From the NCBI GenBank assembly GCA_031370785.1, contig JANMQY010000038.1, forward strand, positions 1-49,569: a DNA stretch of 49,569 nucleotides, in the 5' to 3' direction. Below, piece after piece: positions 12,101 through 21,100 of this stretch; position 1 is the first letter of the stretch, and each line of letters starts with the position of its first letter. This stretch comes from Candidatus Eiseniibacteriota bacterium. Lineage in GTDB: Bacteria; Eisenbacteria; RBG-16-71-46. The position numbers are program-made.

Positions 12101-15100
12101 ACATAAGGTATGAGACGGGGTCAAGCGCAAGCGCAGTCCCCATCCCCTTCCCGAGAGCGCGGAACGGGCGGTTGCAACGGCTTCGGCCAGCGACCGGGCG
12201 CGGTCATGAGGACCCCGCGGATCAGGGACGCGAGAGCGCGCTGCGGTACACGATCCAGGCCGCCACCCGGGCGACCTCGGCCAGACTTTCGGGAGAAACC
12301 TGGTCCGGCAGGTCGAGGTGCGTATGCCAGGCCGGATAGTCGAAGTCGATCACGTCCGCGGCCGGGATCCCTGCCTCGATCAGCGGGACGTGATCGTCGG
12401 TGAGGGTGTAGCGCGGCTCGCTCGAGAAGGCGCGCGCCCCGGTCGCCTTCGCCGCCTCGAGCACGATGCCCACCAGGTTCGCGGCGTACGCCACCGAGTT
12501 GCCCTCGGGGTGAATGTTCAGGTCGCGGTCTCCGACCATGTCGAAGACGAACGCCGCGACCGGACGGCTCCCGGGATTGCCTCCGTTGCGGAACCGCGCG
12601 GCATAGGCCTTCGAACCGAGGCAGAACTCCTCGGGCCGTGAGGAGTGCCCCTGATCCTCGCCGTCCACGAAAACCAGGTCGACCCCGATCCCGGGCCGCC
12701 GATGGTGGAGCAGCTCGGCGACTTCGAGCAGCACCGCGACCCCCGAGCCTCCGTCGTTCGCCCCCGGAACCGGATCGGCCCGGTGCGCGCTTTGCGGATC
12801 CTGATCCGACCACGGACGCGAGTCCCAGTGCGCGAGCAGCGCGATGCGTCGTCCGCCTTGCGGGCCGAAGTGCGCGATGAGATTCACGAGCTCGAGCCGG
12901 AGTCCGGGCAGCGAGTCGGTGAACGCCTGGCGCTCGACCGAAGCGCCGAGGCGTCTGCATTCGGATCCGATCCATTCCTCGATCGCCCGGTGTCCCGGTG
13001 TCCCCGGGATGCGCGGTCCGGCCTCGACCTGATGCACCACCCGCGCATGGGCGCGCGCGCCGTCCACTTCGAAGCGGGAGGCGCACGCCGCCGGGGCGAG
13101 CAGCAGGCTGAGCGCGGCGGCCGCTTCGAGCGCGCGTTTCATGCTCAGAATGTGAATTGTGCGCGCAGCTCGACGCGCACGTTTCGCCGCACGATGCCGG
13201 TCTGCAGCTCGCGGGTCTGGCCGAAGCCGAGCAGGGCATTGCCGGTGACGTTGCTGCTGAATCCGTAGGATCCGGTCCCGTTCACCGAGAGCCGGTCGTC
13301 ACCGACCGGGAACTGTGGACGATTGTTGCCTTCGCGCAGCGTCTCGCCGGTGCGCCGGTTGTACTCCGCCGAGAACCCGAGATTCACGGTGGTGCGCACC
13401 GTGGTCTGCTTGCCGAGCAGATTCACCTTCTGCCCCTGGGTGTAGGTCCGGTTGATGCCGAGCTGAACGCGGGCGCGTCGCTCGGTCGTGATCGACCGGC
13501 CGAACTGCAGGTTCTCGCGCCGGGTCACCGTCCGCTCCATCTTGAGCTGGGTGCGCGTCCCGTTCTTCAGCGAGCCGTCGATGTCGAGCGGATGGAGCTC
13601 GCTGCTGACCGCGATCGTGAACGGATCGGTGTCGTTGCGGTATTCGGTCTCGCGCGAGCGGCTGTAGCTGGTGGTGAAGCGCGGCTCGCGCAGCACGCGG
13701 CTCACCTGCAGGATCTGCGGGACGCGCCCGTACTCCACATCGAAGTCCGGGAAGCGCGTACGAATCACCCGGCCGATCACGTCATTGGTGTTGCTGCGAT
13801 GCCACGTGTACTCGCCGCGGGTCCCGATCGATGCGCCGCCCCCCATCGCGAGCCGGGTGCGGGCGGCGGCGCGCGCGTCCTGATTCTTGCTCGACTGATT
13901 GGCGATCTGCTCGGCCACATGATTGCCGCCGAATCCCGGGTCGCTGCTCAGCCCGACCAGGTACAACGCGCTCGGGTTCCCGGTGAGCCGGGAGTAGTTG
14001 CTGCTGGTCGTGAAGGAGGCCTCGGTGCTCAGTGCGCCGAGCCGCGAGAGGATCGAGGAGATCGAAGATCGGCGCGGCCGGGCGCGGCCGCTGTCCGCCG
14101 GGCTCGGCGCGGCGACCTGCCCCTGCGGAAGGGCGAGCTGATCGAACGGCACGTTCCAGGTGAAGGAAGTGGTCTGCGAGTTGCCGATCGCGCGAATGCT
14201 CAGGTCCTGCGAGAGCTCGGGACCGTTGCTCTGTGCATAGCCCGAGCTCCAGGTGAGCGAAGGAGTCACCCACTTGCTGCGTTTGAGGGCGTAGTGCGCA
14301 TCCATGCTCTGACGCCAGCTGACCAGCCGCCCAAGATTGATGAAGCCGATCTTCTGAGTGAGATCCTCGCTCAGCGTGAGATTGCGCACGCCTTCGAAGT
14401 GGTGGTGGAGCAGATCGAACGGACGGGTGTCGGCGCCGAAGTTGATGTATGCGATACGTCCCTTGGTCAGGTTGCGAAGCACCAGGGATCCAGTCGAGTC
14501 GCGGTTGCGATCGTAGGTACGGCTCTCGCGCGTGGCCAGTGAGTAATTCCAGTAGATGCGTTCCGGCAGCGGGAACAGGCGCAGCTTGGTGCCGGGCATC
14601 GGGACCGTCAGCAGATTGCGGGGGGTGATCGAGTAGTTGACCGCGGCGCCGACCGAGGTGGACGTATCCACCGTGCTCGGGTTGCGGCTCACGGTACGCG
14701 AACGGCTGACGTTCGCGGTGATTCCTCCGACCGTATAGCGCAGGAACGGATTCGAGCGGTCGCTCCAGGTGCGCTGGTAGCTGGTGCTCCATGCCTGGGT
14801 CTCGCTGCGCGTCTCGCTGGCATCGGCCTGCGCCCCAATGCGCACGATGTCATCCCCGGCGCTGAAGCGCGGCTTCATCGAGGATCGCGCGTACGAGTAG
14901 CCGATCGGGATCACGATCCCGGTGCCCTCGAAGAAGCGGTGGAGGTCGACGCCGGTGTTGAAGTTGACCTGGCTCACGCTGACGCCCTGCCCGCGCGTCT
15001 CGCCCACGCTCAGGAAGTCGGCGTCGCGGCCGTTGTAGCTCAGGTTGTAGCTCAGAAGATTCGCCATGCGGCCGGTGACGAGGAATCGCTGGGCGTGCCC

Positions 15101-18100: not shown

Positions 18101-21100
18101 CACCGGAGTGCCGGCGAACGAGACGGCCAGCACCTGATCGGCGGGCAGCGCGTCGCGAAGCTTGATGACCTTGTAGAAGGGCCCGTACGGCTGGATGATC
18201 TCGTAGTCCTTGTCCGGCCCCGGCTCGAGCCGCTTGAACGAGCCGCGGATCGAGGTCGTGTCGCCTCCGACGGCCGGATCCGCGTTCGGATCGAGGAATG
18301 CGCGCCCGAACACCGTATTCACGTTCGAGCTGTAGGTGTTGAGGTCGCGGTACACGCGGATGGTGCTGTCCTGCACCTCGAGGGCGGGAGAAAGATTCCC
18401 GTCGTACAGGAAGAAATAGGTGGACTCGATGTACTGGCCATCGAGGATCCGGTTGGTCTGCCGCGACGAACCGCCCGAGTAGGACGCGCGCTCGCTGCGT
18501 CCCTCCTGTTTGCTGGCCAGCAGCGTCATGTCGAGCGGCCCAAGCCGTCCGGCGGCCTTGATTCCAAACAGGCCCTCGTTCTTGCCGCTGTACGACACGT
18601 ACTGGGTGCCGGGCAGCGACAGGTTGGTGTTTCCGAGGTCGAACTCCTGGATCAGGTCGTCCTCGTCGCCCTTGTAGTTGATCGCGATCCGGTTCGCGAG
18701 CGGCACGGTGTTGGTCGAGTTCTGCAGCAGGTTCACCTTGATCCGGTCGCTGAGCTGGCCTTCCAGGCGGATGTCGAGGTTCTGCTGCATGTCGAGCGAG
18801 GGAAACAACGAGCGCTTCTGCCCGAACTGGCCGAGCTGCTGGTTGGTCCAGTCGCTCTGACCCGACAGCTGGATGCTCTCGGAGCCCGACACGTTGAGTG
18901 CGGGTCCGCCGGGGCCGAGCAGGTTCTGGATCCTGGGCGGCAGTGGCGAGGGCAGCTTGAACGAGAAGCCGGGCTGCGACCCCTGATACTGAGGCGTATT
19001 CGCGCCGAGGTTGTTGAGCTTCTCGCGCGTGACCTGGGCCCATGCCTTCTGGAAGTTCCGCGCGAACATCTCGCGCGAATAGTCGAGAAGCGACTCGCGC
19101 ATCGGCGCGCTCACGTCCACCGAGTTGATCTGCGCGCTCGACGCGAGGCTCGGCACTGCGACGTCGAAGCGCACGTCGATCCGCCGCGGATCATCGGGGC
19201 GGATCGCGAGGCGCGTGAAACGCGGGCCGAGCCTGGGGAGCGCGGAGGTGACGAACTGGTCCTCGAGCGCCAGGCGGGACGCGCTGCGCCACGCCAGCGG
19301 CAGGGTATCGGCAGGCGCTGGGTGTGCGGCGTGCTTCATGCCGAACCCGGGAAAGGAGAATAGAAATACGAGCGCTGCTGGAGCGAGAGAGGTCAGCATG
19401 AGGGTGGATGGCCGCCTTTTCCGCCCCGGAATCGTGAGCGGCGCGCGACCCTAGCAGCCCAAGTTCGGTCGGTCAAAGCCTTTAGCGGCAAAATCCATCG
19501 CTCCAACGACGACCCATGGGGTAGGCTGCAGCACGTGCGTCTCCTCCGTTCCTACATTCTTCGCCTGCACCTGGTTCCTTTCCTCCTCGGCTTCGGCGTG
19601 GTCACGTTCATCCTCGAGATGGACGTGCTCTTCGACTATCTCGATCTGGTGGTCAATCGCGGGGTGGCGGTGGGTGTCGTGGCGCAGCTTTTCGGCCTGT
19701 CACTCGGCTACATCGTGGCGCTCTCGGCGCCGTGCGCGGTGCTGGTCGCGGTGCTGATGACCTTCGGGCGGCTGTCTCAGGATAACGAGATCACGGCCCT
19801 GCGCGCGAGCGGGGTGAATCTCGCGAGCGTGCTGCTGGGTCCGCTGGGCGCCGCCGTGGCGCTGGCCATCGGACTCACGCTGTTCAACAACCACGTGCTG
19901 CCCCCGGCGAACCACGCGTTCGCAAACCTGTTGATCGACATCGGGCGCATGCGCCCTACCGTCAAGCTGCAGGAGGGCGTGTTCATCACCGATTTCCCCG
20001 GCTACAACATGCTGGTGCACTCGGTGAACGGGCGCACCAACGAGATGCGGGGCATCACCATCTACCAGACCAACACCGGCGGACCGCCCACCACCATCCT
20101 CGCAAAACGCGGCTTCCTATCCTACACCCCGGATGGACGCGACGCGCTTCTGGAATTGAAGGACGGCGAGATCCACGAGATCCCCTCGGACGAGGGCGGC
20201 TCGCGCCGCTACCGGCGCCTCGCCTTCAAGACCCACGTGATCCACATCGCCGGCGCCGGACGCATGCTGGAGCGCACCGTGCGTGATGCGCGCAGCGACC
20301 GCGAGATGAGCGCGAGAGAGCTGCTGGACGAGCGGGCCGGGCTGATGGTCGAATACCAGCGCGCGCTGGCCGGCTATCAGGAGGCACTGATCCGTCAGGG
20401 AGCGCCGCGCGAGGCGGTGCTGGAGATCGCGCCCGAGCAGATTCCGCCGGGCGCGCTGGTGCGCAACCTGATCGCACGCATGCGTGGCGAGCCGACCGCA
20501 CTCGAGCGATTCTTGAGGCAGCACCCCGAGCTGCGCGGCACGGTCGAGCTGTGGCGCACCGAGCGCGAGGGGCTGCGCCGCCGCATCGCCGGAGTCTCGG
20601 TCGAGATGCACAAGAAATTCTCGCTGCCGGTGGCGTGCGTGGTATTCGTGCTGATCGGCGCTCCGATCGGCATGCGGGTGCGTCGCGCGGGGCCCGCGAT
20701 CGCGTTCATCTCGATCGGCTTCTTCCTGTTCTACTACCTGTGCCTGATCGGAGGCGAGGAGCTGGCGCGCCGCCTGCTGCTGCCGGCGTGGCTGTCGATG
20801 TGGCTGCCGAACATCGTGCTGGGCATCTGGGGAATCCGTGAAACGCTGATCGCATGCGAGCTGCTGCGCCCGGTCCCGAAGAGACAGAAGCTCCGGGCGG
20901 CCGCGTGAATGTGAAACCGTTTCGCATCCTCGACCGCTACGTGTTCCGCGAGTTCGTCGGCTACCTCGCGCTCGGCCTGGTCGGATTCATCGTCATCTTC
21001 ATCGTGGTCGACATCTTCGAGAAGATCGACGTGTTCCTCGACCACCATGCGCCGATCGCGCTCATCACCAGCTTCTACCTGTATCGCGCCCCCGAGGTGG

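Follow-up and report, generated by a model that had tools for sequence, protein, structure and literature searches.

The window, the whole stretch of 49,569 nucleotides analysed here, comes from the draft genome of a soil bacterium of Candidatus Eisenbacteria (3.44 Mb in 147 contigs; completeness 100, contamination 0.91). It carries on the minus strand, at 13145..19399, the gene sprA/sov for the outer-membrane translocon of a type IX secretion system (T9SS). Its open reading frame (ORF) matches TIGR04189 (E 3.4e-158; 528.7 bits, cut-off 200), the Pfam domain SprA_N (1.4e-19) and the Flavobacterium johnsoniae SprA structure 6h3i_A (E 2.7e-36). The start placed earlier, at 19339, gives a protein of 2064 amino acids (AA) (13145-19339), while an ATG at 19399 gives 2084 AA and extends the N-terminus by MLTSLAPAALVFLFSFPGFG. 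As the N-terminus is signal-peptide-like only with this upstream ATG, the true start is probably 20 codons upstream of the earlier placement (13145-19399). The M28 glutaminyl-cyclase-like gene that the earlier note placed beside sprA is indeed there (12222..13142, minus strand), and starts 2 nt downstream of the sprA stop codon. Its product is an M28-fold homologue of type II glutaminyl cyclases (Peptidase_M28, 1.1e-30), the best solved relatives of which include the bacterial glutamine cyclotransferases 6qro, 6qql, 7cje and 4fuu (E 2e-43 to 2e-47). Divergent from sprA on the plus strand is a gene for an LPS export permease of the lptF/lptG family (19535..20908; LptF_LptG, 1.8e-77), and a second permease gene of this family lies at 20854..21999 (plus strand; 1.9e-87). 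A housekeeping run downstream of sprA starts with nusA (10113..11693, minus strand; NusA_N, 4.3e-34) and continues, according to Pfam, with infB, DUF503, truB, ribF, rpsO and pnp. Among 79 Eisenbacteria loci compared with 3-kb flanks, SprA is adjoined by a homologue of the first permease in 55, by NusA in 52 and by the cyclase in at least 42; the second permease is present in 55. Neither the Pfam matches of the window nor these 79 loci place any motor gene at the flanks of sprA.

Other T9SS components are encoded elsewhere in the genome. PorU, as had been claimed, is present (contig C142, 9194-13483; NF033707, 466.8 bits, cut-off 420), and it bears the same C-terminal sorting tail as the cargo. 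PorV (C142, 13591-14541) scores 67.4 bits with the Pfam PorV model (cut-off 27) and 115.8 bits with the equivalog NF033710, under the cut-off of 250. The porU-porV operon also holds an M6-like peptidase, a giant ORF and an Omp85 protein. A motif of roughly 55 AA is common to this giant ORF and SprA. PorX is represented by a PorX-like ORF of 535 AA with a PglZ domain. There are several PorV-family barrels, as the earlier note had it, with eight weaker PorV-like matches besides PorV; no inner-membrane genes flank the porU-porV operon or seven of the PorV-like genes. Cargo was counted with a local HMM made from C-terminal domain (CTD) matches. It finds the sorting domain, many copies of which Pfam labels FlgD_ig, in 109 ORFs of this genome, a few of them contig-edge fragments; in 108 of the 109, which are unrelated proteins, the domain ends at most 26 residues from the C-terminus. 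The claim of numerous C-terminally tailed cargo proteins stands, the earlier count having been about 70, and the 109 tailed ORFs argue, on the basis of gene content, that the system is in use. On contigs C16, C133, C126, C84 and C7 a large tailed gene is followed by its own small PorV-family barrel gene.

No GldK, GldL, GldM or GldN could be found in this genome, in agreement with the earlier note. TIGR03517 (GldM) has no match at E<=10, TIGR03525 (GldK) and TIGR03523 (GldN) have none, and the best TIGR03513 (GldL) match is at E 2.2. The only PF12081 (GldM_1st) match is at noise level (E 0.33), inside a gene that we take, from its N-terminal sequence, to be glyQ-like. The FGE-sulfatase domain (PF03781) is also missing at E<=10, which excludes a PorK-type ring in this genome. 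A scan of membrane architecture found no GldL/GldM-like pair (a protein with two transmembrane segments, then one with a single segment); the gene prediction behind it is crude (2248 genes, 77% coding), which makes it weak evidence. With models built on Bacteroidota proteins, SprA, PorU and PorV (528.7, 466.8 and 115.8 bits) reach 0.23 to 0.43 bits for each position of the model. At these rates, scores of about 56 to 223 bits should be seen with the models of GldK (408 positions), GldL (247), GldM (524) and GldN (280), while what is observed is nothing at E<=10, or noise.

The absence is wider than had been claimed. Among 121 sampled Eisenbacteria genomes, which represent 62 genera and 17 families and include 103 of high quality and four single-contig ones, SprA is found in 118 and PorU in 117, and none of the 121 has a motor protein over the curated cut-off. 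GldM_1st and GldN are found in none of the 121, TIGR03517 in none of 61 relatives, and GldM_1st in none of another draw of 40, which we judge to come from the same genomes. The GldM_1st matches that the earlier note gives for 6 of 31 genomes of a Bacteroidota sample were not reproduced. Neither GldL nor GldK passes its cut-off in any of the 121; the best GldK match has 110.6 bits against 350 and is the sole GldK match past E 1e-30. Of the 121 genomes, 90 have FGE-sulfatase domains, none of GldK grade, so that the reported lack of this domain holds for the genome of the window but not for the phylum. Two GldL matches (26.5 and 21.9 bits), which lie in coiled-coil proteins roughly 1156 and at least 633 AA long, were rejected as spurious. 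Every genome searched is from Eisenbacteria and no known GldLM holder is among them, so the absence has no positive control, and the loose prefilter of the multi-genome profile search could drop very weak homologues unscored. We found no published description of a missing T9SS motor in Eisenbacteria.

Comparison with the T9SS of Bacteroidota (F. johnsoniae, Porphyromonas gingivalis) covered SprA, PorU, PorV, PorX, GldK/L/M/N, CTD cargo and the cyclase. Both have the SprA/Sov translocon of about 2000 AA, the FadL-like shuttle PorV and PorU, a C25 sortase that is itself tailed; in both, many secreted proteins unrelated to one another carry Ig-like sorting domains at the C-terminus, and there is a PorX-like regulator and a P. 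gingivalis-type glutaminyl cyclase. In contrast with the Bacteroidota systems, which have GldKLMN or PorKLMN, GldL/PorL, GldM/PorM, GldK/PorK and GldN/PorN are undetectable in Eisenbacteria; sprA lies beside lptFG and forms a coupled pair with the cyclase gene, the porU-porV operon includes the M6-like peptidase, the giant ORF and the Omp85 protein, and many PorV paralogues adjoin tailed cargo genes. Autotransporters, two-partner secretion and the curli channel CsgG also move Sec-exported proteins across the outer membrane without a dedicated motor. The system proposed below would be motor-free like these, with unrelated machinery; we know of no demonstration of such motor-free transport for SprA. 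The tailed gene-barrel gene pairs recall the type B cargo SprB-SprF with its PorP/SprF-like carriers (PMC9143113); unlike these, the barrels here are of the PorV family and the tails are type-A/FlgD_ig-like. Gene order alone suggests that these tailed proteins pair with their own barrels.

The reading we prefer, although we hold it at slightly less than even odds, is that the translocon in the window is part of a reduced, outer-membrane-only T9SS without the GldLM/GldKN energy chain, in which a passive ratchet would drive release. Its main rival, which we consider unlikely, is that a different 5:2 motor driven by protons, akin to ExbB/ExbD-TonB or TolQ/TolR, replaces GldLM/GldKN and pulls PorV-family carriers off SprA. 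The genome has only three MotA/ExbB-family genes, and one is in a tight gene train on contig C7 (gaps of 2, 0, 30 and 8 nt, then three overlaps) that encodes a cargo protein with a sorting tail (1102 AA), a barrel of the PorV family that ends in an Ig domain, a giant CpoB-like TPR protein (1071 AA), ExbB, ExbD, ExbD, TonB and, last, a 370-AA protein. The barrel matches PorV 6h3i_F in sequence (E 1.2e-6), and its AF2 model (pLDDT 71.8; barrel, linker and Ig domain) matches PorV 8gl6_F/6h3i_F (TM 0.59), and also FadL, in Foldseek. The full order is kept in all 12 loci fetched (four families, 40-69% identity), picked from the 24 other genomes bearing the TPR orthologue. The train resembles the TonB-ExbB-ExbD/Tol-Pal transducers invoked in other systems: Myxococcus PopC secretion is reported to require a TonB-dependent transporter (Oar; PMC6434023), and passages of PMC12204202 interpret PorE as a fusion similar to Tol-Pal that may rely on a force transducer of the TolA/TonB kind. 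Unlike TonB-dependent secretion, no gene of the train has a Pfam match to a TonB-dependent receptor or plug. The operon is, however, accessory: the TPR orthologue is present in 25 of 71 genomes, in 6 of 28 of the window's own family, and is not found in two of the three single-contig genomes of that set of 71 (G031 and G081), which both have SprA. A second TPR/ExbB-ExbD-ExbD-TonB-type cluster and a Tol-Pal cluster are also present in the genome of the window, and in many bacteria TPR-TonB clusters of this sort serve as ordinary TonB systems. Gene neighbourhood alone is weak evidence of a functional link, and a link of the train to secretion is hypothetical.

It is improbable that GldL, GldM, GldK and GldN homologues are present and escape the TIGRFAM and Pfam models, either by having diverged too far or by having been rebuilt from other folds. 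The GldL, GldM and GldN models exceed their cut-offs in no genome of the Eisenbacteria-only search set, which offers no positive control; PorV is already under its equivalog cut-off (115.8 versus 250 bits), and the SprA proteins of different Eisenbacteria families share only 26-31% identity, so these envelope proteins evolve fast. Against divergence, four independent proteins go undetected in 121 genomes, while three other T9SS proteins are easily found with models of the same origin, and the genome of the window lacks FGE-sulfatase domains, a GldL/GldM-like pair and a motor gene in the T9SS neighbourhoods examined (sprA, porU-porV, seven PorV-like). Assembly or binning gaps are a still poorer explanation, one we give almost no weight: this genome is a draft in 147 contigs with 1611 bases withheld, but its completeness is 100, and an operon the size of gldKLMN would not vanish from all 121 genomes, four of them single-contig. 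Finally, SprA, PorU and PorV could be relics, or could have a different role, for instance in outer-membrane biogenesis, the tails being ordinary Ig domains rather than export signals. Secretion is deduced from genes, FlgD_ig is the Pfam label of many tails and LPS-export genes adjoin sprA; the domain's extreme C-terminal position on unrelated proteins (108/109 ORFs), the same tail on PorU and the conservation of SprA (118/121) and PorU (117/121) make this very improbable.

The factual core of the earlier note, namely SprA, PorU, PorV and tailed cargo without PorK/L/M/N, stands; that SprA works motor-free we infer, and this fits the results. In the motor-less system, cargo (about 100 proteins in this genome) would cross the inner membrane by Sec, PorV sitting in SprA would take up the C-terminal Ig-like domain, SprA would provide the path through the outer membrane, and PorU, a C25 peptidase with the same tail, would cleave the cargo tail. 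According to passages of PMC10994853, absence of the motor leaves cargo stalled on SprA in F. johnsoniae. PorV-cargo release from SprA needs the GldLM motor in Flavobacterium; here neither this motor nor the GldKN ring is recognisably encoded, and release would have to go without them. The most likely mechanism would be a passive ratchet, in which PorV binds SprA more weakly and cargo folding outside the cell, together with PorU cleavage or attachment, would make transport irreversible. Both secretion itself and the force behind release are inferred from sequence. Judged by gene content, this reduced form of T9SS is the usual one among the Candidatus Eisenbacteria sampled. Passive release would require SprA and PorV to behave in a truly different way from those of F. 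johnsoniae.

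The genome to which the window belongs (3.44 Mb in 147 draft contigs; completeness 100, contamination 0.91) carries parts of a type IX secretion system (T9SS) without recognisable genes for the GldL/PorL–GldM/PorM motor or the GldK/PorK–GldN/PorN ring; this observation is confirmed here, and it applies to the phylum as far as it was sampled. The translocon gene lies in the window, where two closely coupled genes, sprA/sov and a gene for an M28-fold protein, occupy positions 12222–19399 of the minus strand. The identity of SprA stands: its product scores 528.7 bits on TIGR04189 (E 3.4e-158; curated cut-off 200), matches Pfam SprA_N (1.4e-19) and directly matches the solved SprA of F. 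johnsoniae (6h3i_A, E 2.7e-36). The start does not stand as first described (13145–19339, 2,064 aa). The ORF remains open upstream to an ATG at 19399, and only this start, not the one proposed earlier, gives a hydrophobic, signal-peptide-like N-terminus, so that sprA probably begins at ATG 19399 and is 20 codons longer (19340–19399), extending over 13145–19399. The start codon of the M28-fold gene (306 aa) lies 2 nt past the sprA stop codon. The best solved relatives of its product include the glutamine cyclotransferases 6qro, 6qql, 7cje and 4fuu (E 2e-43 to 2e-47), in matches that span nearly the full length; this close similarity and the fold bear out the glutaminyl-cyclase-like assignment of the earlier note, and the protein is predicted to be a bacterial type II (animal-type) glutaminyl cyclase.

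Divergently, upstream of sprA, lie two lptF/lptG permease genes, and downstream of the sprA pair are the housekeeping genes nusA, infB, truB, ribF, rpsO and pnp; no inner-membrane motor gene was seen near sprA in the window. This environment recurs in relatives. A search of genome contigs with an 11-sequence SprA alignment (419 relatives) left 79 loci, nearly all from Eisenbacteria, with 3-kb flanks of which many are ended by contig edges; SprA has an M28 homologue beside it in at least 42 of these 79 loci, NusA in 52/79 and LptF/G in 55/79. Elsewhere in the window, a 944-aa TPR protein is encoded at 30021–32855 (minus strand), adjoining an ECF sigma factor gene (29343–29978).

The other outer-membrane parts are encoded on other contigs of the same genome. 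PorU (contig C142, 9194–13483) reaches 466.8 bits on NF033707 (cut-off 420), as expected from the earlier note; it combines a Peptidase_C25 domain (1.2e-64) with an FlgD_ig-type tail at its own C-terminus, and is thus predicted to be a C25-type sortase carrying its own C-terminal sorting domain. The porV gene adjoins porU, directly after it; its product scores 67.4 bits on Pfam PorV (cut-off 27) and lies below the NCBIfam equivalog cut-off (115.8 versus 250 bits), and we regard it as the predicted shuttle barrel. Eight more PorV-like matches, weaker than PorV, were found in the genome, and so was a PorX-like ORF of 535 aa with a PglZ domain. The porU–porV operon extends over 9194–25806 of C142 (loci L107 and L108), with a tailed M6-like peptidase, two uncharacterised proteins, a giant ORF and an Omp85/POTRA protein following porU and porV. 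The giant ORF (20030–24103, about 1300 aa) contains a motif of about 55 aa common to SprA (E 1e-8) and could be a candidate second SprA-related barrel.

Tailed proteins are more numerous than the approximately 70 counted previously, the existence of many C-terminal tails being upheld and the number not. With an HMM built locally from the tail matches of this genome and then iterated, 109 ORFs with a sorting domain were found, a few of them fragments at contig edges; in 108 of the 109 the domain ends 26 residues or less from the C-terminus, and these ORFs are predicted cargo. Under the Q-rule described for Bacteroidetes (PMC5837995), most substrates of signal peptidase I begin with glutamine once cleaved; here glutamine was at position +1 in 4 of 66 tailed ORFs, the cleavage sites being a crude home-made guess by an unreliable predictor, and by this guess no such rule is evident despite the cyclase gene next to sprA. 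At four places (C16, 9277–13234; C133, 79967–84076; C126, 24774–29665; C84, 25597–27275) a large protein with a divergent tail is followed directly by a PorV-like match. These look like dedicated cargo–carrier pairs, comparable with SprB–SprF of Flavobacterium, from which they differ in that the putative carriers are PorV-family barrels.

In the same genome, searches for the motor and the ring returned nothing convincing. Neither TIGR03517 (GldM) nor PF03781 (FGE-sulfatase, the PorK/GldK fold) gave any match at E≤10, and the best match to TIGR03513 (GldL) had an E value of only 2.2. The sole match to PF12081 (GldM_1st; E 0.33, contig C62) was rejected, as the start of the gene reads like glyQ, and no match to a PorL/PorM-type motor was better than this. 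A scan for a gene encoding two transmembrane segments followed by a gene encoding one, which rested on crude gene calls, yielded 18 candidate pairs and nothing resembling GldL/GldM; those that were scanned held, among others, CdaA, a DUF502 protein, an M16 peptidase together with a cytochrome c protein, and an uncharacterised protein beside an amidohydrolase. No inner-membrane gene was seen in the T9SS neighbourhoods examined in this genome. These results, together with the search of Eisenbacteria with the family models, suggest that the proton-driven PorL/GldL–PorM/GldM motor is absent, and the PorK/GldK–PorN/GldN ring appears to be missing as well.

The absence first noted in one genome extends to the phylum. 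An even draw of 121 Eisenbacteria genomes, this one included, covers 62 genera and 17 families; 103 are at least 90% complete, four are single contigs, and one (G015) is unpublished, no result hanging on it. In this sample, in which the search scored only candidates that passed a loose first look, SprA was found in 118/121 genomes (E≤1e-5; 113 over the cut-off) and PorU in 117/121 (E≤1e-60; 94 over the cut-off), and there was no genome with GldM_1st or GldN at E≤1e-3, none with GldL over its cut-off of 68.3 bits and none with GldK over 350 bits, the best GldK score being 110.6 bits. Two weak GldL matches (26.5 and 21.9 bits) are spurious, lying inside a large DUF4175 protein and a coiled-coil protein. 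TIGR03517 was also without a match in 61 relatives, in a search confined to the class. The earlier statement that FGE-sulfatase domains are lacking is correct for the source genome and does not describe the phylum, as such domains occur in 90/121 genomes, with up to 20 matches per genome. That these proteins are a hidden PorK/GldK was considered and rejected, since their scores with the GldK model reach 110.6 bits at most and the source genome has none of them; they are ordinary members of the family and not GldK orthologues. Some Eisenbacteria have 12 to 20 FGE-sulfatase matches, partly in tandem arrays (genome G071, contig C4, 61188–65315; also genomes G075, G051 and G102).

Two records titled Bacteroidota (G121, locus L085) and Latescibacterota (G122, locus L087) carry an SprA of the Eisenbacteria type, and GldM_1st was found in 0/40 and 0/60 genomes of the sets drawn with them, sets that to judge from the agreement of genome sizes are the Eisenbacteria sample again. 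The titles of draft genomes such as these are unreliable for choosing controls. Among the control genomes was Bacteroides thetaiotaomicron, which is not known to have a T9SS.

A different proton-driven motor does occur next to T9SS-type genes. The source genome has three MotA/ExbB-family genes, one at the edge of a Tol–Pal cluster, one in a TPR–ExbB–ExbD–TonB–TonB cluster, and the third in a co-directional, nearly gapless train of eight genes on the plus strand of contig C7 (6353–17677; locus L119, with relatives at loci L122–L133). The order in this train is a 1102-aa tailed cargo, a PorV-family barrel, a 1071-aa CpoB-like TPR protein, ExbB, ExbD, ExbD, TonB and a 370-aa protein. The Pfam matches (MotA_ExbB 7.4e-32; ExbD 8.4e-18 and 1.8e-25; TonB_C 3.4e-15) predict a TonB–ExbB–ExbD system, and no TonB-dependent receptor or plug match was found among the ten C7 proteins scanned. 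The barrel matches PorV (6h3i_F, E 1.2e-6) by sequence. Its AF2 model (mean pLDDT 71.8) consists of a barrel at about residues 50–273, a linker and a C-terminal Ig domain (296–376) that is probably periplasmic, and Foldseek relates this model to FadL and PorV (TM 0.59). An orthologue of the TPR protein is present in 25 of 71 sampled genomes, that is in 14/15 of one family (f7) and in 6/28 of the window's own family. From the 24 other genomes with a TPR match, 12 loci of this type were fetched, and the whole order is kept in all 12, contig-cut ends aside, with 40–69% identity. Between families the proteins of the train are 40–69% identical where SprA is just 26–31% identical, a pattern that points tentatively to lateral spread, or else to strong constraint. 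The train is a real conserved module in which T9SS-type parts are combined with a proton-driven motor.

Several points speak for a genuine absence. Models of the same origin detect SprA, PorU and PorV, with 0.23–0.43 bits for each model position, from which scores of 56–223 bits would be predicted for the four proteins that are missing. Assembly gaps cannot account for 121 genomes. One of the two main rival explanations is that homologues of GldK, GldL, GldM and GldN are present but have diverged beyond detection. In its favour, the models for these four proteins gave no over-cut-off match in any genome searched, the genomes being almost all Eisenbacteria and none having a known GldLM; against it stand the scores expected above and the outcome of the scan for two-plus-one transmembrane gene pairs, and we consider this explanation very unlikely. 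The other main rival, that a TonB/Tol-type motor substitutes for GldLM, draws on the C7 train, in which cargo, PorV-family barrel and ExbB–ExbD–ExbD–TonB are joined in an order conserved in 12/12 loci. Since the train is accessory, being found in only 25/71 genomes, it was rejected as the general power source of secretion and is retained as a lead only; such a substitution, although conceivable, seems to us unlikely.

The likeliest reading, to which we would give somewhat less than even weight, is that Eisenbacteria have a working T9SS confined to the outer membrane, in which the release step proceeds without a GldLM-type motor. This step comes from Lauber et al. (2024; PMC10994853), who show stalling of cargo on SprA when GldL is missing and conclude that energy is required to release the PorV–cargo complex from SprA. 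A bolder proposal, which we hold to be quite improbable at present, is that GldLM and GldKN were a later addition in Bacteroidota, and that the older core (SprA, PorV, PorU and tailed cargo) was either motor-free or plugged into TonB/Tol-type motors. The C7 train would then be a self-contained cargo–carrier–motor unit in which the carrier is drawn away from the translocon by a TonB-like arm, the task of the GldLM chain in Flavobacterium.

Reviews and structural papers treat PorLM and PorKN as the core of every T9SS (PMC8754138, PMC12421860, PMC12365241), and the model of Abby et al. (2016; PMC4793230) required gld genes and placed the T9SS only in Bacteroidetes. In passages on further FCB phyla, the system only 'may' exist or is suggested by BLAST (PMC11285876, PMC5837995), and tailed enzymes are reported in Fibrobacter, Melioribacter and Chitinispirillum (PMC6851124, PMC3534657, PMC4814513); in F. 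succinogenes the mature enzymes reportedly lack their tails (PMC6851124). Within the literature searched, we found no paper on a T9SS lacking PorKLMN or stating that such lineages do without the motor, and none combining 'Eisenbacteria' and 'type IX secretion'. The result matters for the scoring of genomes by secretion-system finders, such as that of Abby et al. with its requirement for gld genes, and for the interpretation of exported proteomes in uncultured soil phyla. If the sample mirrors the phylum, Eisenbacteria retain the pore, the shuttle and the sortase, along with tailed proteins that number from tens to hundreds, and have none of the four motor and ring genes. This would be of real interest for the T9SS field as a natural experiment on the purpose of the motor, which may serve secretion itself, may serve only gliding or fast turnover, or may be replaceable by another force transducer.
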